Of a stretch of DNA of 64,000 nucleotides, positions 3,672 through 36,348 are shown in pieces. The position numbers were made by a program, and so were the translations under genes. The notes beneath the pieces are model-generated. The model did not search any database, was not told the origin of the DNA, and worked only from the letters and a program-made list of their open reading frames with translations. Numbering within the stretch: position 1 is the stretch's first letter; the number at the start of each line of letters is the position of its first letter. Source of the stretch: Escherichia phage EcWhh-1; the sequence record MH791409.1; one strand, written 5' to 3'.

Positions 3672-4212
3672 ATAAAAAATCCAGCTCACCAACTTTAGAT
3701 TCGGCGCTCTTATCAGACCCTGGCGCTTTAACTAAAGAGGTTTCATACTGAGTCATTTTGTCGTAAATATCCTGGATAAAAGTTTCATCTGCGATACCTA
3801 CCATGTCGTCGTCATTGGCGTCATAAACGTTATGGACGAAGTAGCTGTATTTCTTTGCCATTTCTTTACGTTCTTTCTTGATACGCTGAACAAAGGCATT
3901 AAAACAAGCCATAGTGATATATGCATGCGGGTTGTCGTATTTTGTTTCGTCGAAGTTATGAAGACCTTTAATAGAGGCTTCGATTCCATCAGCAATCATT
4001 TCTTGCTTCCAAGATTGGGTATATCCGGAGAAGTTGAAACGCTTAGAAAGGCCTTCAGCAATGAGCATAATAGCCAAGCCGATAACGTCGTTCTGACGAA
4101 CTATTTTATTAGGGTCGGTATTTTCTCGGAGTTCTGTTTTCCACTGGGTAATGGCTTTCAGAAGCTCCTTATTATTTACATAGTTATTTTTAGTCAGTTT
4201 AATTTCGGTCAT
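3655..4212 (-). CDS. 55: Late-transcription sigma factor gp55
   Basis: 185 aa; [10 protein letters not shown]...[55 protein letters not shown] near-identical to T4 gp55. Confidence 0.93.
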
Positions 4213-4244
4213 TGTTACCTCAGATAACTCAAATCATAGGTCTA

Positions 4245-4278
4245 TTATATCATAGTATTTGGAGACCCGTTTAAAGCA
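4245..4278 (-). promoter_or_regulatory. Middle/early promoter-like element upstream of gene 55 (TGCTTTAA MotA-box-like, TACTAT/TATAAT)
   Basis: minus strand ATGCTTTAAACGGGTCTCCAAATACTATGATATAATAGACC with GGTCT/AGACC stem. Confidence 0.4.
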
Positions 4279-4542
4279 TCAACGGAGTAAGCAATAAGCC
4301 TGAAATACTGTTTCAAGGATTTGTATGAACTCGGGATAAGAAATTGTATCAGTACATCCATGTTCGGACATATATCCGCAAAATTCTTTAAAAAGTTCCG
4401 GATAATCCCGATGGTTGTATTTGGAAATATGAGACTTCCATACTAAAGAAGTCTCACCACAAACAAACTCAACATCCATACAGTTATCTATTAAGAAAAA
4501 TCCGAGACCTTCATAAGCGAGGGTGGTGGATATGGGTTTCAT
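4279..4542 (-). CDS. Hypothetical protein, 87 aa
   Basis: ORF tiling with 4-nt overlap to downstream neighbour. Confidence 0.5.
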   Translation of the reverse strand: MKPISTTLAYEGLGFFLIDNCMDVEFVCGETSLVWKSHISKYNHRDYPELFKEFCGYMSEHGCTDTISYPEFIQILETVFQAYCLLR

Positions 4543-7371: not shown

Positions 7372-7496
7372 TAAAGAACCCACATGTTAGTTACAACAAA
7401 TAACCATTGAGCAGGATACTCAACACCCATAATACGCACCGCATCGTTCAGAGATTCGGCTAAAGCATAAAATGTGTAGCCATAAAAATTAATCAT
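7371..7496 (-). CDS. Small ORF, 41 aa
   Basis: ATG 7496 overlaps gp49 stop (ATGA); TAATG overlap with next gene; below ORF-track cutoff. Confidence 0.3.
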   Translation of the reverse strand: MINFYGYTFYALAESLNDAVRIMGVEYPAQWLFVVTNMWVL

Positions 7497-7966
7497 TTAA
7501 GCGATTTCCTCAGTTGTTTTTTAAACGAATCGACCATTTGTTTCTTAGTGGCAGATTCATTATAAGTCATTCCATGTGAAAGCATTTCAGCAATCATTTC
7601 TTCCTTACCCAACCTGCTGAACTCTTTGGTTTTATCAGGAACGAAATTAGGATGAATATTATTTTCAGTATAATCAGCTTTCAGATAGACCAGCAAATTC
7701 TCTAACCATTCGAGGTAGTCAACGTTTTGACCTTTAAGACCAGAACGGTTGAACTTATGCTTCATTTGTCCTTCTGCAGCATTGCACAGGTTACATAGTA
7801 AACCACGAACCTTACCGGCTTTTGGCCCGTTTAACTCGTGGTCGTGGTCAAGGTGGTTACTTTGAACATCAGGGTTTAATTCACGTTTACAAATCAAACA
7901 CTTACCACATTGTGCATCATAAAGTTTTTGTTTTTCTTCTTTGTATAATTTGCCGGTCAACAACAT
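7493..7966 (-). CDS. 49: Endonuclease VII (Holliday-junction resolvase) gp49
   Basis: 157 aa; MLLTGKLYKEEKQK...CLICKRELNPDVQSNHLDHDHELNGPKAGKVRGLLCNLCNAAEGQ matches T4 gp49. Confidence 0.92.
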   Translation of the reverse strand: MLLTGKLYKEEKQKLYDAQCGKCLICKRELNPDVQSNHLDHDHELNGPKAGKVRGLLCNLCNAAEGQMKHKFNRSGLKGQNVDYLEWLENLLVYLKADYTENNIHPNFVPDKTKEFSRLGKEEMIAEMLSHGMTYNESATKKQMVDSFKKQLRKSLK

Positions 7967-8001
7967 AATAAACCCTTACCATTATTAGATAAGGGTATTT
8001 A

Positions 8002-8187
8002 TTATTTTTCAAATGTACTATAGAACGAACGATGCAACCGTTTAAATTGACGAATCATCTTTTTGGTAGGGCGAGTATACAATCCTACACAGGTGGCCAT
8101 AAACTGGTCGGTAGGACTTCCTTTGATAAGAAGTTTCCAGACCTTACTGCCATCCAACTTTTCGGTATAGACTAATTTAGTTTTCAT
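8002..8187 (-). CDS. Hypothetical protein, 61 aa
   Basis: ORF; TGATG overlap with upstream small ORF. Confidence 0.45.
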   Translation of the reverse strand: MKTKLVYTEKLDGSKVWKLLIKGSPTDQFMATCVGLYTRPTKKMIRQFKRLHRSFYSTFEK

Positions 8188-8360
8188 CAGAACGCCTTAT
8201 CAGCAAAGCGAAGTTGAGCTTCAAGCCAATGGATATAGTCGGCTGCAGCTTTAATCAAATCGGATTCTAGGTCAGGTAAAGAACCCGAATCCGACAACTC
8301 GTAAAGCGAATGTTCAATCAGACGGCCTTTGTGACGGCCAATTTCAATTTTGGTACTCAT
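8187..8360 (-). CDS. Hypothetical protein, 57 aa (MSTKIEIGRHKGRLIEHSLYEL...)
   Basis: uninterrupted reading frame, below ORF-track cutoff. Confidence 0.35.
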   Translation of the reverse strand: MSTKIEIGRHKGRLIEHSLYELSDSGSLPDLESDLIKAAADYIHWLEAQLRFADKAF

Positions 8361-8476
8361 ATCCAAACTCCATATCGATTAAATCATTGTTTGAAGGTTC
8401 ATTATACTCTATTTCGGAATCGTTGTAAACCGGTTCCTCTGGCTCGGTAGTTTCCCACCGAGCGACATACCATGGC

Positions 8477-11871: not shown

Positions 11872-12087
11872 TTAAAGTCCAAATAATTTTTCATAGAGTT
11901 TAGCAATAGGCCATAGAACTAGCATACATAGCCAGGCAAAGCAAAATACCGGCCATACGAATGTAATGAATACTGCATCATAGCTTGATTCAATTTCAAC
12001 CGGGTTCCATGCACCGGACTTATGAACAAATAATGCAGTAATAAATCCTATCACAAGATATCCAATAATAAAACTGATAATTTCCAT
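11872..12087 (-). CDS. Small membrane protein, 71 aa
   Basis: two hydrophobic helices (IIGYLVIGFITALFV; VFCFAWLCMLVLWPI). Confidence 0.5.
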   Translation of the reverse strand: MEIISFIIGYLVIGFITALFVHKSGAWNPVEIESSYDAVFITFVWPVFCFAWLCMLVLWPIAKLYEKLFGL

Positions 12088-12089
12088 AA

Positions 12090-12938
12090 TTAATCCTTAA
12101 GAAGATTTAGGATATCGATATATTTTTGACGTTCAGCCTTAGCTTTAGCATTCAGACCAGAGAGTCGGAAAATCTCATCATCTTGTTGTTGGATTGTAAC
12201 ATTCAAGCAAGTAAGCAAATTGCTAAAATACTCAATCTGGGCTTGATGCTTCTCATTGCTGCGCACTGGCACAGGTTCCGGTTTAGGAGCTTGTTCTGAA
12301 GGCTCTTCAGTCAGGTCTTTAATTTGGTACAGTTTAATACGCTGACCCGCTCCAGTTTCGGCATCACCAAAACTAAGAACACCATGCCGTTCTAATTCAG
12401 ACAGGGCTAAGCGCAGGTGGAACTTCCAGTTGTCATATTGACAACCACTATAAGTGGAAACAATATACCCACCATGTTCAGGTATTTGACTTTTAATAAT
12501 ATTAAAGACAATCCAATCGCCTGAACCATTGGTCTTAAAGGTCATTTGTTTATCAAGACCTTTTGCAAGGCGAGCGCCAAGAGCCAGTAGACGCCGTTGG
12601 TTGGCATGAAGGTCTTGAACAACTTCGTCAAATGACATCGCCGGGATTAAACGACCATAAAGGTCGTAGCCTTTGTTATAATTTTTAAGAATAATTTTGG
12701 CATTAGCACGAGACAACATACCTGTTTTACGAAGAGTTTTCATGACTCGGTCTTCTAACGTAAACGAACCTTTAGTCTTGTCAAAGATTTTAGTGAAGTC
12801 ATCTTTAACAGTACAAACATTGAACTTGTCCCACATCATATATAGAACCCTTTCAACCACTTCATTAGAACTCGGAATAAAACCAAAATTAATAACTTTT
12901 TTAACTTCAGAACGAATTTGATTAATTGCCTGTGACAT
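12090..12938 (-). CDS. Hypothetical protein, 282 aa (MSQAI... N-terminal module)
   Basis: SD + ATG; shares leader and first codons with gene 5043-5372. Confidence 0.6.
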   Translation of the reverse strand: MSQAINQIRSEVKKVINFGFIPSSNEVVERVLYMMWDKFNVCTVKDDFTKIFDKTKGSFTLEDRVMKTLRKTGMLSRANAKIILKNYNKGYDLYGRLIPAMSFDEVVQDLHANQRRLLALGARLAKGLDKQMTFKTNGSGDWIVFNIIKSQIPEHGGYIVSTYSGCQYDNWKFHLRLALSELERHGVLSFGDAETGAGQRIKLYQIKDLTEEPSEQAPKPEPVPVRSNEKHQAQIEYFSNLLTCLNVTIQQQDDEIFRLSGLNAKAKAERQKYIDILNLLKD

Positions 12939-28183: not shown

Positions 28184-29143
28184 TTATTTTTCGAAAGGAC
28201 GAATTAAATGATGGTTATCTTGGAATCGTTTGATGTAGTCACTTTCACCTAAAGTCTTGTACATATTAACCACAGCTTGGTAGTTTTCCCATGCATAAGT
28301 GCGGAACCAACCTGAAGTGATTGAGGTACACACTTTCTCAAGAGCCATATAGAAACTTAATGATGGTGAAATATTGAAGTCATTAGGAACCTGTGAACGT
28401 TCTAGTGCCAGGACACAAGTTTCTTCATATACACCAGCCAGTTTAATAGCTTCAGGCAAAGCCTCGAACTTCTCACGAGAGGTCATGACTTCAGAACCTT
28501 CCTTCATATAAAAGGTATATGCAGGGCGCCCTGCCAATGCCACTGCTTCATGGATAGAGTCGTGGTCTAGCGTATAAATGGTATCGTTAAAGAACGATGA
28601 TTTGTTTACATCCAATTTAGGGTGCTTGTAGCTCAACGTTTCTTTTTGACGTTGCAGCATAATTTCCTGGAGTTCTTCGTTCAGGGTGATACCTTTATTA
28701 CGAAGGTATTTGATGTGGGACATAGTTTTCAGGAAGAAAGGATTATTCTTCAGGAAACGATGAGAGGTTTTGATAGCCAGACAGATATCAGGCGTGGCCC
28801 AATAAAAGCCTGTCATACGGTCCTTTTTAATATGATTTTCAGCATATTTTAGGAGACGATAACTTGAGGTGAAATCTTCGTCTTGAAGCTCACCGGTGAT
28901 TTCTCGTACGTTAGTCAGAGCACGAACGATATATGCTTCAAAATAGGTTTCTTTACCGTTGTACATGCATTTAAAAGCCTGGACATCAGGGTTATCCACA
29001 GGAACATGGGCGCCGAACATCCGAGCTTTAAAGTGGTTCCATGAGCCTTGGTCGGCAATGAAATCCCAATCAGAATTTTCGATATACTTACTTTCAATCA
29101 GACCAGCGTGGTGCAGTGCACGAGAACCAATAACTAACATCAT
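28184..29143 (-). CDS. Hypothetical protein, 319 aa
   Basis: SD AGGAAAAT + ATG; no motif recognised. Confidence 0.55.
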   Translation of the reverse strand: MMLVIGSRALHHAGLIESKYIENSDWDFIADQGSWNHFKARMFGAHVPVDNPDVQAFKCMYNGKETYFEAYIVRALTNVREITGELQDEDFTSSYRLLKYAENHIKKDRMTGFYWATPDICLAIKTSHRFLKNNPFFLKTMSHIKYLRNKGITLNEELQEIMLQRQKETLSYKHPKLDVNKSSFFNDTIYTLDHDSIHEAVALAGRPAYTFYMKEGSEVMTSREKFEALPEAIKLAGVYEETCVLALERSQVPNDFNISPSLSFYMALEKVCTSITSGWFRTYAWENYQAVVNMYKTLGESDYIKRFQDNHHLIRPFEK

Positions 29144-29156
29144 AATATTTTCCTCA

Positions 29157-29324
29157 TTAGTAGAGACGAGTTACTTCATATTTACCTAGTTCAGATTTTT
29201 TTGCTTCAACACGCGTGGCAGCGAGATTAGCGGCCTCTAGTGAAGAAAATTGAAGCACTTGTGAAGTATTCTGCCTTACGCCACCTTGTGGGTGAGTAAC
29301 AAAAACAATAAGAACATTATACAT
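29157..29324 (-). CDS. Hypothetical protein, 55 aa (MYNVLIVFVTHPQGG...)
   Basis: SD GAGGAAAA + ATG 29324; below ORF-track cutoff. Confidence 0.4.
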   Translation of the reverse strand: MYNVLIVFVTHPQGGVRQNTSQVLQFSSLEAANLAATRVEAKKSELGKYEVTRLY

Positions 29325-29345
29325 AATATTTTCCTCAGAGTAAAC

Positions 29346-29585
29346 TTAAATTTCGGCAACGTAAGTATTATGCAATTCCCACATATCATCGGAATTACTC
29401 TCAACGATAGGAATTATCTCATTAGAAATTTCTTCTGCATAAGGGTCATTGATACAGTGGGCATCTTCAAAACGAACACCGTAATCAGACTTCTTATAGG
29501 CAAAGCCATAAATCTTTTTAAACTTGGCACGAGTAATGCGTACCGGTTCATTAGACTTATCGGACATCGGAGCGTAATACCACAT
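29346..29585 (-). CDS. Hypothetical protein, 79 aa
   Basis: SD GAGGAGAACAT + ATG. Confidence 0.5.
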   Translation of the reverse strand: MWYYAPMSDKSNEPVRITRAKFKKIYGFAYKKSDYGVRFEDAHCINDPYAEEISNEIIPIVESNSDDMWELHNTYVAEI

Positions 29586-29612: not shown

Positions 29613-29641
29613 ATAGTAACACGTATTTTTAGAGTTGTACA
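29613..29641 (-). promoter_or_regulatory. Early-promoter-like element (TGTACA, 17 bp, TACTAT)
   Basis: minus strand GATGTACAACTCTAAAAATACGTGTTACTATTACCC. Confidence 0.35.
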
Positions 29642-29979
29642 TCACTTCTGCAATATTCTAAAAATAATTTATCGTTGTCTACCGTATCCCAACGACGCCA
29701 AGATGGATTCCAGACCAGAGCGTTGTCACCACAATCATTGAGCTTAAAATGGTCGTAGTACATAGCTATACGTCTAGTTTCGTCACCAGAGAACCCCAGT
29801 ATAGGCTCACCATGGGTGTGATACATATGATGGTGCATTGAGAGGTCGCATTTGTAAAACATCTCACGTTTACCACGAACGAACAAGAAGGCTTGCCCAT
29901 TCATATAGAATTCTTTGTCTGTTTTCAAAAGATATTTGAATACCGAATCTTTATGCATAAATCCTCCTACCACATCCAT
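29629..29979 (-). CDS. Hypothetical protein, 116 aa
   Basis: ORF; His-rich. Confidence 0.5.
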   Translation of the reverse strand: MDVVGGFMHKDSVFKYLLKTDKEFYMNGQAFLFVRGKREMFYKCDLSMHHHMYHTHGEPILGFSGDETRRIAMYYDHFKLNDCGDNALVWNPSWRRWDTVDNDKLFLEYCRSDVQL

Positions 29980-29988
29980 GTGGTTAAA

Positions 29989-30216
29989 TTATTTTCCTAA
30001 CGAAACACGAGTAGGTTTTTTACCAAAATAGTCTTCGTAAGAACCATCTAAACGACCTGCTTTAGACCGACAATACGAATCATACTTTTTGTAATAAGTC
30101 ATCTCAGTATTATAACGTGGGTGTCTATCGGCCATAATAATACTTAGTGGCCAACCTTTGGCATAATCGCGAAGACCGTTTATTTTACGAATGTATCGTT
30201 TTTTCAATTTTAGCAT
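29989..30216 (-). CDS. Hypothetical basic protein, 75 aa
   Basis: ORF. Confidence 0.45.
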   Translation of the reverse strand: MLKLKKRYIRKINGLRDYAKGWPLSIIMADRHPRYNTEMTYYKKYDSYCRSKAGRLDGSYEDYFGKKPTRVSLGK

Positions 30217-30434
30217 GAGCTTGGGTACCAGATTTCACCATCGGCACGAGCAACGAAGGTGCGACCAGCTTCTTCACCATAACAAGAGCTATTCAGCCAA
30301 TCTTCGAGACGAACTTCACCGTCATAATCGTCGAGCTCAACACCAAAATCCTGAGCAGAAGCCATATCTTTTACTTTCTTATACAGTGCAGCCAGTTCAA
30401 GTGCCGCTTTTTCTAATTCATTAATAGTAGTCAT
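30210..30434 (-). CDS. C-terminal-Cys family member E (ends ...EIWYPSSC), about 74 aa
   Basis: start moved to ATG 30434 with SD AAGGTGA; helical N-terminus; tail resembles the four upstream paralogues. Confidence 0.5.
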   Translation of the reverse strand: MTTINELEKAALELAALYKKVKDMASAQDFGVELDDYDGEVRLEDWLNSSCYGEEAGRTFVARADGEIWYPSSC

Positions 30435-30444
30435 TTTTATCACC

Positions 30445-30654
30445 TTAGCAAGACATAGAGGAGCTAAACCAGAAACCTTCACCTTCAGGAATACCGTAAT
30501 CATCACGGACCCATTCGTAATCATCATATTCCGGACTAGAAGCTGGAATATATTCTTCGCCACCAGCGTGGAAGTGCTGACCTGTTTCGTCAGCCACGGA
30601 CTGGCCTTTACGTACTAATTCACGGATTTGTTTTTCAATTTCATCAATAGTCAT
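30445..30654 (-). CDS. C-terminal-Cys family member A (ends ...GFWFSSSMSC), 69 aa
   Basis: acidic; stop TAA followed by GG forming TAAGG SD for next gene. Confidence 0.55.
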   Translation of the reverse strand: MTIDEIEKQIRELVRKGQSVADETGQHFHAGGEEYIPASSPEYDDYEWVRDDYGIPEGEGFWFSSSMSC

Positions 30655-30663
30655 TTTATTTCC

Positions 30664-30861
30664 TTAGCATTCGTAAGAGGAGGACACCCAGGAGCCACCT
30701 GTAATTGTAATACAGCCATTGTAAATCGTGATATGACGGTCCAGATGGTTTTCACCATCGATATAGATATCAGCTTCTTCGCGTTCTTCTTTACAAATCT
30801 GGATAACGTTTTCAATAGCTGCGGCTGCAGTACGGATTGCACAATCTAGTTCACGAGACAT
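30664..30861 (-). CDS. C-terminal-Cys family member B (ends ...GGSWVSSSYEC), 65 aa
   Basis: same junction architecture TGC-TAA-GGAAA...ATG. Confidence 0.55.
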   Translation of the reverse strand: MSRELDCAIRTAAAAIENVIQICKEEREEADIYIDGENHLDRHITIYNGCITITGGSWVSSSYEC

Positions 30862-30870
30862 AATAATTCC

Positions 30871-31152
30871 TTAACATTCAGAAGAAGAGGACACCCAACC
30901 ACCATTTTCTAGGCTGGTAGTGTAATCATGTTGGTTTACAATAGCGTACTGAGCTTCACCGTATTCTTCCCAGTGGGCAAGGTCGGCTTTCAGGGCGCCA
31001 GGAGAATAATAGTCACCGCCCATACCGCGAGCAGGGTATATATTAAAATGAGTCTCATATTTGTTAGCAATTTCCTCAGCACGTCGAATAGCTTTATGGA
31101 TATCATTTACTGCTTTGGCCAGCTCTTTATTTTTACGGTAATCATTCATCAT
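30871..31152 (-). CDS. C-terminal-Cys family member C (ends ...NGGWVSSSSEC), 93 aa
   Basis: same junction architecture. Confidence 0.55.
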   Translation of the reverse strand: MMNDYRKNKELAKAVNDIHKAIRRAEEIANKYETHFNIYPARGMGGDYYSPGALKADLAHWEEYGEAQYAIVNQHDYTTSLENGGWVSSSSEC

Positions 31153-31161
31153 AGTGTTTCC

Positions 31162-31452
31162 TTAGCACATTGCTGAAGAGGAGACCCAAGCACCAACTGT
31201 AACGACACCATTTTCAACTTCACCGCCGTTGTTTTCAATTTCATCTTTAAACCACTGGGAGCATTCATAACCGACAGGATAATATGTACGGCCTGAACCA
31301 TAATCACCGGTGCCGAATTGGATACCATACTTATCGGCAATAGCTTCGCATTCATGTTCGATGGCATCTACTTTATTCAGAAGAGCATAGATAGCCTTTT
31401 CTGCAGATTTCTCGTCATTGTGTTCTGGGATTTCAATTTCAATTTTATTCAT
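31162..31452 (-). CDS. C-terminal-Cys family member D (ends ...VGAWVSSSAMC), 96 aa
   Basis: ATGA overlap with upstream membrane-protein gene; same tail. Confidence 0.55.
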   Translation of the reverse strand: MNKIEIEIPEHNDEKSAEKAIYALLNKVDAIEHECEAIADKYGIQFGTGDYGSGRTYYPVGYECSQWFKDEIENNGGEVENGVVTVGAWVSSSAMC

Positions 31453-31802
31453 GATTTACATTCCTTAATAAAGGTTTCAAGGTCATTACGTTTAGTTTGT
31501 TTTACATACTCATTATAATTAGCCATCTCTAAAGCATATCTCTTACGGATGGGAGCATTCAAAGCATTTGTATGGCAAATATCATACACGAGAGGGATAA
31601 AATAGGCCACAACTGCTGGAGCGATTATCATATAGAAACCCATCTCAATAGGTGTGACTCCTTCGATTACAGCCATAACCACGGTCATTACCAGGCCAAT
31701 TAGGCCACCAAGCATGGCTGTAACAATCCCTAATAATAAATTGGCACCAATATCATATTCAGCCAATTGATAAACATGCGATGAAAGACTAGGCCGTTCC
31801 AT
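31449..31802 (-). CDS. Membrane protein, about 117 aa
   Basis: start moved to ATG 31802 with SD AAGAGG; multiple hydrophobic helices. Confidence 0.5.
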   Translation of the reverse strand: MERPSLSSHVYQLAEYDIGANLLLGIVTAMLGGLIGLVMTVVMAVIEGVTPIEMGFYMIIAPAVVAYFIPLVYDICHTNALNAPIRKRYALEMANYNEYVKQTKRNDLETFIKECKS

Positions 31803-32331
31803 TTTGAACCTCTTTAGCGTATTCACGGCATTCAGCAATAAAGCGATTAAGCTTCCGTTGTTGTTTACGACTTTCTAATGTGTACTCAGCAGTTAAGATA
31901 CCAAGCTCGGCTTTATCATAATTTTTAATATCAGTGTAAGATGGTCGACGGTCGACCATTCCAAATACATCACCATTTTCTAAAGCCACATAGCATACTA
32001 AATGGTAATCATCGTCTGCCATATTAAGAAGCACACAATCATCGCTCTCATTTAAAGAATATACTGAATAACGTAGTCCAGCGAATTCCACTCGTTGAAT
32101 AGTCAGATTTACGTCAATAATTTCCAAAGCATCTTCAAAAGAAAGGTCTTCAGCTAAAGCAAAAATAAAAGGTAATTTGGTAGTATCGCCACGGCTAGAT
32201 GTTCTGCTTAAGAAATCGTTTGAATAGCCTAGGTCTTGGCGAATTCTATAAAGAACTGAATTGGTTTCATGGGAAAGACCACTATTTTTAAACCAATCAA
32301 TATTTGATATAAGGTTATCATATAAACTCAT
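31789..32331 (-). CDS. Hypothetical protein, 180 aa
   Basis: SD GGAGGAGAGGAGAA + ATG. Confidence 0.55.
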   Translation of the reverse strand: MSLYDNLISNIDWFKNSGLSHETNSVLYRIRQDLGYSNDFLSRTSSRGDTTKLPFIFALAEDLSFEDALEIIDVNLTIQRVEFAGLRYSVYSLNESDDCVLLNMADDDYHLVCYVALENGDVFGMVDRRPSYTDIKNYDKAELGILTAEYTLESRKQQRKLNRFIAECREYAKEVQNGTA

Positions 32332-33009: not shown

Positions 33010-33046
33010 TGAGGACATTATACCCTGTCCTCTGAGGGTTGTAAAC
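33010..33046 (-). promoter_or_regulatory. Early promoter (GTTTAC, 18 bp, TATAAT)
   Basis: minus strand GTTTACAACCCTCAGAGGACAGGGTATAATG. Confidence 0.55.
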
Positions 33047-34976: not shown

Positions 34977-35051
34977 TGGTATCCCGCCCTGGGATCGAAC
35001 CAGGACCGCAAACTTAGAAGGATCGTATGCTATCCATTACACCAGCGGGAC
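34977..35051 (-). tRNA. tRNA-Arg (anticodon UCU), CCA encoded
   Basis: minus strand GTCCCGCTGGTGTAATGGATAGCATACGATCCTTCTAAGTTTGCGGTCCTGGTTCGATCCCAGGGCGGGATACCA; 7-bp acceptor stem, T-loop TTCGATC, anticodon loop CTTCTAA. Confidence 0.85.
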
Positions 35052-35731: not shown

Positions 35732-35808
35732 TAATCAAAGTTGGTGACCCAGACCAGATTTGAACTGGTAACCTTTCCCTTATGAGGGGACTGCTGCTAA
35801 CCATTGAG
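35732..35808 (-). tRNA. tRNA with CAU anticodon (Met or lysidine-type Ile), CCA encoded
   Basis: minus strand GGCCCTGTAGCTCAATGGTTAGCAGCAGTCCCCTCATAAGGGAAAGGTTACCAGTTCAAATCTGGTCTGGGTCACCA; T-arm ACCAG-TTCAAAT-CTGGT, anticodon loop CTCATAA; D-arm and acceptor have mismatches. Confidence 0.65.
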
Positions 35809-35825
35809 CTACAGGGCCTTAATTC

Positions 35826-36245
35826 TTAACTAGACCAATTCCAACCTTCGGAAGGGCCATCATAGTGTACACAAATATCAGGCGAAATATTAAAATTGGT
35901 ACCATCCGAAGAAAAAACACCTAACTTTTTACCAAACTCGCTGAAACAGAACTGTTCACCGCCTGGTGACCAAACATCTTCAAATAAAACAGTGAATAGC
36001 CATCCGGCAATTAAATCGGCATCAAATTCTGTTACGCCGGAACACATTTCATATAACTCGTCATCACAGACTGTAGCCACAATATGAGCTGAGTGTTCTT
36101 TAGATTTTAACCAAATACGGATTAAATTCCCGTCAAAACAATTATAGTTAATTTCAGATGGTTGGCAGTTATAAAATACTTCTGTAGCGATTTCTGGATT
36201 TTCCCAGGTTTCGCTGTTAAAATCGATAAGAATTGGAGTAATCAT
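35826..36245 (-). CDS. Hypothetical protein, 139 aa
   Basis: SD GAGGAAAAT + ATG. Confidence 0.5.
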   Translation of the reverse strand: MITPILIDFNSETWENPEIATEVFYNCQPSEINYNCFDGNLIRIWLKSKEHSAHIVATVCDDELYEMCSGVTEFDADLIAGWLFTVLFEDVWSPGGEQFCFSEFGKKLGVFSSDGTNFNISPDICVHYDGPSEGWNWSS

Positions 36246-36348
36246 ATTTTCCTCATTAGTTGATTAATTCTATTATGAAAGGCTCTTTGAGGGAAGAACC
36301 TTTGGTAATAGAGGGTATTAATGATAGAGTAATAATATCACATAATTC

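Follow-up and report, generated by a model that had tools for sequence, protein, structure and literature searches.

Escherichia phage EcWhh-1 carries, within the 64,000-nt stretch of its genome analysed here (MH791409.1; hereafter the window, whose positions are used for all array coordinates), an array of five small minus-strand genes whose products have diverged bodies and a common C-terminal tail, W-x-x-S-S-(x-x)-Cys. These products belong to a family of phage-restricted small acidic alpha+beta proteins for which that tail is the invariant feature, and it is very probable that the family is real and that it forms a conserved module with an enzyme, a 319-amino-acid (aa) protein composed of the DUF7277 and DUF7275 domains and encoded downstream of the array.

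The array had been picked out in an earlier reading of the window (the original prediction), which described five consecutive minus-strand open reading frames (ORFs) with Cys as the last residue of each, as well as stop codons running into GG to form a Shine-Dalgarno sequence ahead of the next ATG. All five ORFs were located with the sizes and tails described, and the sequence bears out both the terminal Cys and the TAA-GG junctions, the latter at the four internal boundaries. Copy A (31162-31452, minus strand, 96 aa, subtype A) contains GDYGSGRTYYP in its body and ends in ...GAWVSSSAMC, and copy B (30871-31152, minus, 93 aa, subtype B) contains ARGMGGDYYSP and ends in ...GGWVSSSSEC. Copy C (30664-30861, minus, 65 aa), whose body is the most diverged of the five, ends in ...GSWVSSSYEC, copy D (30445-30654, minus, 69 aa) in ...GFWFSSSMSC, and copy E (30210-30434, minus, 74 aa counted from the ATG at 30434) in ...EIWYPSSC. 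The last of these holds the tail motif twice, as DWLNSSC (followed by YGE) internally and as IWYPSSC at the C-terminus, a feature overlooked earlier. Read from the sequence, the four internal junctions follow the pattern TGY-TAA-GGAA/GGTG, 7-8 nt, ATG, and lie within a minus-strand region spanning 30435-31164: TAA-GGAAACACT-ATG between A and B (31153-31161), TAA-GGAATTATT-ATG between B and C (30862-30870), TAA-GGAAATAAA-ATG between C and D (30655-30663), and TAA-GGTGATAAAA-ATG between D and E (30435-30444). At the outer ends, the start of copy A overlaps the stop of an upstream membrane-protein gene (ATGA), and the stop of copy E overlaps the ATG of the next ORF (ATGCTAA). Cys is the final residue in 32 of the 975 stop-to-stop segments that reach 30 aa or more in the window, and of these 32 only copies A to E have W..SS near the end, which argues that the array tails are not a matter of chance.

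Based on comparison with orthologues in related phages, the five ORFs are judged to be real, translated genes under purifying selection. Ratios of non-synonymous to synonymous substitution (dN/dS) fall between 0.03 and 0.39 across all copies (A, 0.13-0.28; B, 0.15-0.39; C, 0.03-0.24; D, 0.21-0.33; E, 0.09-0.25), and it is these values, together with the coupled Shine-Dalgarno/start junctions, that argue for genuine genes. When the five proteins are aligned with 39 database homologues (n=44), the invariant columns are exactly W, S, S and C. Hidden Markov models (HMMs) built with one subtype left out, such that all training members were <35% identical to the tested copy, nonetheless recognized the full-length proteins (E-values: A, 3.5e-18; B, 2e-18; C, 3.5e-7; D, 2.9e-14; E, 8.8e-6). 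Hence the alignment statistics on which the original prediction had staked the shared tail do support it, with four invariant residues in 44 sequences and E-values of 1e-18 to 1e-5. The same models also recognized copies from which the last 10 residues had been cut off (A, 8e-15; B, 7e-15; D, 2e-9), the tail-less bodies of C and E being matched more weakly (7e-4 and 2e-4), and the similarity is therefore one of common descent rather than of tails that converged. Additionally, the tail motif is selected at the amino-acid level, because TCN and AGY codons both occur at each of the two invariant Ser positions in a set of 93 distinct tail sequences (AGY in 15/93 and 32/93); the terminal Cys is encoded by TGC in 59 and by TGT in 34. 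An origin of the terminal Cys in ribosome-binding-site constraint on TGY-TAA-GG was considered and rejected, since Cys also closes the final copy of each array and is kept by GC-rich phages whose junctions differ, and since the Ser and Cys residues of the tail use multiple codons.

The original prediction further proposed repeated duplication of one cassette, with a diversified body and a conserved tail. The HMMs and the 44-sequence alignment uphold the paralogy, the divergence of the bodies and the conservation of the tail, but the array is not the product of recent local duplication. Similarity between the copies survives in their DNA only at the 47-nt junctions (68-79% identity), and subtypes A (YGxGxTYYP), B (GMGG) and E (double motif) each occur also in Aeromonas T4-like phages or in Phapecoctavirus-like phages, subtype B being found further in Otagovirus-like, Acinetobacter and marine phages and the double-motif type in 28 distinct members from other phages. 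Since subtypes are common to several distinct phage groups, the array is an old multi-paralogue set, and the duplications behind it are ancient.

As a group, the small proteins are acidic, as predicted (pI 4.2-5.5 for A to E), with a median pI of 4.4 among 187 distinct family members, the extent of the family being that known from the fetched loci. Their N-terminal halves had been described as diverged and helical; the divergence is evident from the alignment, in which nothing beyond W, S, S and C is invariant, and the helical shape is seen in the AlphaFold2 model of copy A, a predicted alpha+beta fold (predicted local distance difference test score, 91.2) with a long helix (residues 14-42) packed on a small sheet. 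The tail Trp of this model lies within the last beta-strand (residues 88-91). Sixty-seven of the 187 distinct members have a single Cys, and copies B and D, too, possess no Cys other than the terminal one, so that an intramolecular disulfide or metal site is not available there. The final Cys can also be lost by a premature stop, as in a near-identical marine pair in which one member (locus L006, 4202-4384) ends in ...EWTSSSQN-stop and the other (L047, 1710-1895) in ...EWTSSSQNC. In database searches, A, B, D and E matched phrog_899 (E-values 9e-24, 3e-20, 2e-13 and 8e-10, respectively) and belong to that family, while copy C has its best match in phrog_4882 (E 2e-36) and reaches phrog_899 at just E 0.038. 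These unknown-function catalogue families, whose members appear as 'hypothetical protein' in dozens of GenBank phages, carry no function, motif description or link to the enzyme, and they were the only families to turn up when matches to a characterized family, which the original prediction had named as a ground for abandoning it, were sought. Pfam gave no informative match, PADLOC none at all, NCBIfam only noise far below cutoff and the PDB sequences none, whereas the BFVD structures returned only members of the family itself, the named relatives coming from phages that also encode the enzyme. A further window ORF, at 35826-36263 (minus, 145 aa), ends in ...EGWNWSS; it matches phrog_25544, is unmatched by the family HMM and was set aside.

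The partner enzyme is encoded at 28184-29143 (minus), where the Pfam match to DUF7277 and DUF7275 corresponds to a Pol-beta-type nucleotidyltransferase fold followed by a conserved C-terminal domain. A homologue is present in 733 phage records of GenBank, and about 1,900 protein clusters contain the enzyme. The protein is a Pol-beta-type nucleotidyltransferase with an intact catalytic core and the nucleotidyltransferase fold, in which the hG[GS] motif is joined by a DxD on the following strand and by a third carboxylate; the signature G6-S7, D25-x-D27 and E69 is invariant in 38 enzyme sequences and conserved in 21 representatives of all lineages. No solved structure in the PDB matches it in sequence. 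Its closest solved structures are MenT toxins, over about 145 of the 319 residues, making MenT-like proteins its nearest structural neighbours, but the AbiEii/DUF1814 Pfam model matched none of the 38 members at E up to 1, and the enzyme is accordingly filed as a Pol-beta-type nucleotidyltransferase and not as a member of the MenT family. Its C-terminal two thirds are extremely conserved (K.SHR, Y.HP.L, Y.YDHD.IH, PAY..Y, G..EE, VLA.ER, KVC.SITSGWFR), with invariant His, Asp and Glu residues and one invariant Cys. In the MenT family, C-terminal motifs III and IV form the catalytic site (PMC10435456); among the invariant elements of the phage enzyme are K125-x-S-H-R129 and Y-D-H-D-x-I-H, which may or may not correspond to these motifs. 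Among 100,044 species genomes the enzyme was matched three times, always on metagenome-assembled contigs of 73-87 kb that have tail-motif ORFs upstream, and the module is thus effectively phage-restricted. A 252-aa homologue of the DUF7275 part only was seen in Streptomyces phage TunaTartare (locus L016, 3878-4636), directly after an RNA ligase gene and with no tail-motif ORF nearby, which hints at a possible RNA-end-related role of the conserved C-terminal domain that would not depend on the small proteins.

The main finding is the constancy with which the two components occur together. For this, 80 IMG/VR loci, chosen solely by homology to the 319-aa protein, were searched with the iterated family HMM and with a regular expression for the tail. 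All 183 HMM members lie on the enzyme strand, 182 of them upstream and one downstream, and on that strand the tail expression matched 214 ORFs out of 1954 upstream and none out of 1597 downstream, against 6 out of 4028 on the opposite strand. When enzymes are clustered at 60% identity, all 18 clusters (18/18) have small copies, from one to five each, and a copy is present somewhere in 79 of the 80 loci. Among five loci that appeared negative, four possess one on the opposite strand, at a distance of about 6 kb; in each of these (L072, L073, L076, at about 12558-12689, minus, and L091, at 11987-12322, minus) the sole family copy, ending in ...YAWCSSSMEC, lies downstream of the enzyme. In the reverse direction, searching with the small family led to a distant member that is followed, 84 nt downstream, by the enzyme gene, and the small family was never observed without the enzyme in the loci examined. 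The linkage had first come to notice in two records: Aeromonas phage 44RR2.8t has an A-type and an E-type copy beside nrdD and directly upstream of ORF062c, which is 46% identical to the 319-aa protein, and a Phapecoctavirus record has three copies directly upstream of a 313-aa ORF that is 41% identical to it. The same arrangement holds in a Tara marine contig, GC-rich metagenomic phages, Pseudomonas phage PspYZU05 and an Otagovirus; enzyme and copies are linked in Menderavirus too, although the copies there lie downstream. The flanking genes, in turn, vary by lineage (e.3/e.2, nrdD, ribonucleotide reductase genes including one of class II, a Dda-like helicase, NAMPT), implying that the two components travel as a unit. 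In marine and GC-rich phages, a PF26820 (Phage_T4_Y00F) gene sits between the small genes and the enzyme (L006, 4424-4864; L007, 147-587; L011, 4660-5001), and it may be a third, lineage-specific component.

With a fixed tail, diverged bodies and the enzyme as the only constant neighbour, the array has the pattern expected if the tail fits the enzyme, and a physical partnership between the small proteins and the enzyme through the tail is judged probable. The reading that we tentatively prefer goes further, taking the tail as a shared handle that would engage the enzyme and the paralogues as putative targets of nucleotidylylation on a tail Ser or Cys. Nucleotidyltransferases structurally related to the enzyme add nucleotide monophosphates to hydroxyls of tRNA 3' ends or antibiotics. 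In the HepT-MntA system, MntA, a minimal Pol-beta nucleotidyltransferase, covalently (oligo)AMPylates a conserved residue of the small HepT protein encoded by the neighbouring gene (PMC7641770, PMC11586414). It is from these two precedents, transfer of nucleotide monophosphates by structural relatives and modification of a neighbouring small protein by minimal enzymes, that nucleotidylylation of the tail is drawn, and covalent modification as such is rated a credible possibility, short of an even chance. Each paralogue would dock into the enzyme via the common tail, the enzyme would move a nucleotide monophosphate onto a tail hydroxyl or thiol, which either invariant Ser or the Cys would supply, and the diversified bodies would then direct each modified paralogue to its own cellular partner. 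The retention of two to six old, distinct paralogues favours substrates or adaptors over a single inhibitor. In its broadest and rather doubtful form, the proposal is of a hitherto overlooked tail-modification system in many large phages of Proteobacteria (T4-like, jumbo, Otagovirus-like, Phapecoctavirus-like and marine), in which the small proteins would be covalently nucleotidylylated carriers or effectors with different targets and the C-terminal domain of the enzyme would possibly process the tail further. The original prediction had suggested a shared modification, metal-binding or targeting role for the terminal Cys, and the conserved linkage to an enzyme of nucleotidyltransferase fold lends indirect support to modification or targeting as a role of the tail.

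Several observations weigh against a tail that is engaged and modified by the enzyme. Contact and modification alike are deduced from gene neighbourhood and motif conservation. The distance from the stop of a small ORF to the start of the enzyme gene has a median of about 900 nt, and the gap in the window is 1.07 kb, filled by four unrelated ORFs. Enterobacter phage CC31 (L039) has no copy within 6 kb of its enzyme, and no tail-motif ORFs lie near the distant DUF7275 homologues of Vibrio phage nt-1 and an actinophage; from these three cases it follows that the enzyme can exist without the small proteins. The position of the Trp in a beta-strand of the model means that the motif may in part be a structural element instead of a free peptide, and one copy of the motif is internal in E-type proteins, so that a free C-terminus is not required. 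Finally, the terminal Cys, which the original prediction regarded as invariant and which does close all five array copies, is not strictly universal, as 203 of the 212 detected members end in Cys and nine do not.

Other explanations share much of this evidence. The small proteins might be non-covalent regulators, either antitoxin-like inhibitors of the active site or specificity subunits that steer the enzyme to substrates such as particular tRNAs. The strict linkage suits any physical partnership, the small acidic genes lie upstream of the enzyme on the same strand much as in type II toxin-antitoxin operons, and the MenT toxins, the closest solved structures of the enzyme, include MenT1, whose active site is blocked by MenA1, a 68-aa protein encoded beside it (PMC10435456). 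Yet one inhibitor would be enough, whereas two to six ancient paralogues are kept, with subtypes A, B and E conserved over several phage groups; two invariant Ser residues and a Cys resemble reactive groups more than a plug; the small proteins have neither fold nor sequence likeness to MenA1, AbiEi or any antitoxin; and the enzyme itself is unmatched by the Pfam AbiEii/DUF1814 model. Regulation of this kind is therefore considered unlikely, albeit worth entertaining. Alternatively, the proteins could be independent effectors for host takeover or anti-defence, using the tail for intermolecular disulfide or metal-bridged oligomerization, as a protease or chaperone tag, or for targeting to a membrane or partner, in which case the linkage would amount to mere co-regulation or co-inheritance in an accessory island. 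Small, acidic, early-region proteins would fit that description, as would the unrelated ORFs often inserted between the small genes and the enzyme gene, the Trp predicted to be part of the fold and the enzyme homologues that lack small genes. However, order and strand are fixed in 18 enzyme lineages, including jumbo, Otagovirus-like, Phapecoctavirus-like and marine phages, which is hard to explain without functional coupling, and the family is always with the enzyme in the loci examined, making independence of this sort distinctly unlikely, and the same holds for a linkage due merely to shared regulation or inheritance.

The remaining alternative is that the tail is processed in the manner of ribosomally synthesized and post-translationally modified peptides (RiPPs), with O-nucleotidylylation of Ser, elimination to dehydroalanine and addition of the Cys thiol to give a lanthionine-like C-terminal ring, one enzyme serving several precursors. 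Lanthionine rings are compatible with the Ser-Ser-x-x-Cys spacing, several precursor-like genes stand upstream of a single enzyme gene, and the extra domain of the enzyme is large and extremely conserved, its invariant residues including His, Asp, Glu and one Cys. On the other hand, neither the enzyme nor its neighbours contain LanB, LanM, LanKC or LanC-like domains, and the S-S-C spacing of E-type tails is too short for the usual ring. A LanC-like Cys-Cys-His zinc site in the C-terminal domain of the enzyme was examined as a candidate and lost ground because the second potential ligand, C243, is Tyr in many lineages. Moreover, RiPP logic is turned around, in that conservation falls on the core whereas the would-be leader is modelled with confidence as a folded domain, and processing of this type is very improbable.

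Taken as a whole, the system appears, on comparative genomics, which is also the sole source of the proposed mechanism, to fall outside the known kinds with which it was compared. The closest precedent is the HEPN-MNT (HepT-MntA) type VII toxin-antitoxin system, in which a nucleotidyltransferase modifies a small protein from an adjacent gene. There, however, the partner is a HEPN RNase modified on Tyr, whereas the phage enzyme, which is much larger and includes an additional conserved domain, would act on small proteins of a new fold that bear Ser and Cys in their tail; as neither a HEPN fold nor any other known fold was found for the small proteins, they are not placed with HEPN-MNT systems. 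The likeness of the enzyme to MenAT and AbiE systems is structural only, covering about 145 of 319 residues and unaccompanied by any sequence match to DUF1814/AbiEii, and the small proteins resemble MenA1 and AbiEi antitoxins in neither sequence nor fold. Unlike those systems, the phage module has one to six paralogous partners, and it is encoded by phages and next to never by bacterial genomes. Also among the closest known systems are GlnD-PII and the aminoglycoside/lincosamide nucleotidyltransferases ANT(2'') and LnuA. RiPP clusters such as that of the prochlorosins and ProcM likewise have several short genes with a shared Ser/Cys segment ahead of one enzyme gene, but in the phage proteins the conserved segment is a C-terminal 'core' and not a leader, and the bodies are folded. 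Although Ser and Cys are present, no LanB-, LanM-, LanKC- or LanL-type domain occurs in the neighbours or partner that would make these lanthipeptide-type genes, nor do the small proteins belong to any defence system in PADLOC or any NCBIfam family.

Within the window, the array lies between an e.3-like membrane-protein gene and genes leading to e.2, nudE and e, and its region is 96% identical to that of JS98-like Dhakavirus phages, e.g. SHP1, IME281 and AnYang. The e.3-like predicted membrane protein (31449-31838, minus; phrog_2330, E 3e-45) is encoded directly upstream of copy A. Its RB69 counterpart, directly upstream of the RB69 array, is annotated e.3, and its SP18 counterpart, gp142, is an unnamed hypothetical protein. 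RB69 carries copies A (split into ORF139c and ORF138c), B (137c) and C (136c). The two A-type pieces, at 3989-4204 and 4194-4295 of locus L003, jointly align with the full 96-aa protein, the second ending in ...GAWVSSPALC, and a frameshift, or else an error in sequencing the reference genome, accounts for the split. Between copy E and the enzyme gene, the four unrelated minus-strand ORFs encode 75 aa (29989-30216; PHROG 7065), 116 aa (29629-29979; PHROG 9796), 79 aa (29346-29585; PHROG 3723; RB69 counterpart ORF135c) and 55 aa (29157-29324; PHROG 20278). None has a Pfam match, each has its own PHROG of unknown function, and all are absent at the matching position in Aeromonas phage 44RR2.8t and the Phapecoctavirus locus; they are lineage-specific inserts outside the conserved module.

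Transcription signals around the array provide weak evidence only. A consensus scan gave a sigma-70-like match at 33017-33045 (minus; TTTACA-17-TATAAT, 11/12), upstream of the gene block, which is a possible candidate early promoter for read-through into the array, and another at 29316-29344 (minus; TTTACT-17-TATAAT, 10/12), just upstream of the 55-aa ORF and the enzyme gene. No minus-strand terminator-like site was found between 28000 and 33000, no TATAAATA late promoter in the array and no Rfam family match in the array region. Genes for tRNA-Arg(tct) and tRNA-Met(cat) lie at 34977-35051 and 35742-35818 (minus), about 3.5-4.4 kb upstream of the array, a position that is that of the tRNA cluster in T4-like genomes. 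In T4 itself, e.2 and e.3 are adjacent, and a scan of the whole T4 genome found neither the small family nor the partner enzyme, in agreement with the original prediction, which recognized the tail from no T4 protein family. Two T4 candidates were dismissed: nrdC.3, as a counterpart of the enzyme, is unrelated, and Tk.1, as a family member, gives a marginal E-value of 0.002 with the iterated HMM and lacks the tail. T4 nrdC.11 (7436-8446 of locus L101) does carry a nucleotidyltransferase annotation, yet DUF7275/DUF7277 homologues and the tail-motif family are both missing from T4, and nrdC.11 and the enzyme appear unrelated in sequence.

The sequences of both components are already in databases, as hypothetical proteins and PHROGs, and the superfamily of the enzyme is known. 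Literature searches found no publications on phrog_899, DUF7275, DUF7277 or the RB69/JS98 locus tags, nothing relevant on a C-terminal Cys with a nucleotidyltransferase in phage or on T-even accessory-gene screens, and no description of the tail motif, the paralogue set, the enzyme or their linkage. Even on the most conservative reading, the tail motif and the synteny rule are a useful annotation marker for the module. If the partnership is real, the module is a widespread phage-specific two-component system that has apparently gone unnamed so far, and it would bring to phage biology a new kind of protein modification or a new pairing of a nucleotidyltransferase with its regulators, as well as a function for conserved 'hypothetical' genes of RB69, JS98 and many phages considered for therapy. 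With tRNA-modifying toxins and abortive-infection proteins as the nearest structural relatives of the enzyme, the system may have a bearing on the tRNA-centred conflict between phages and their hosts as well.

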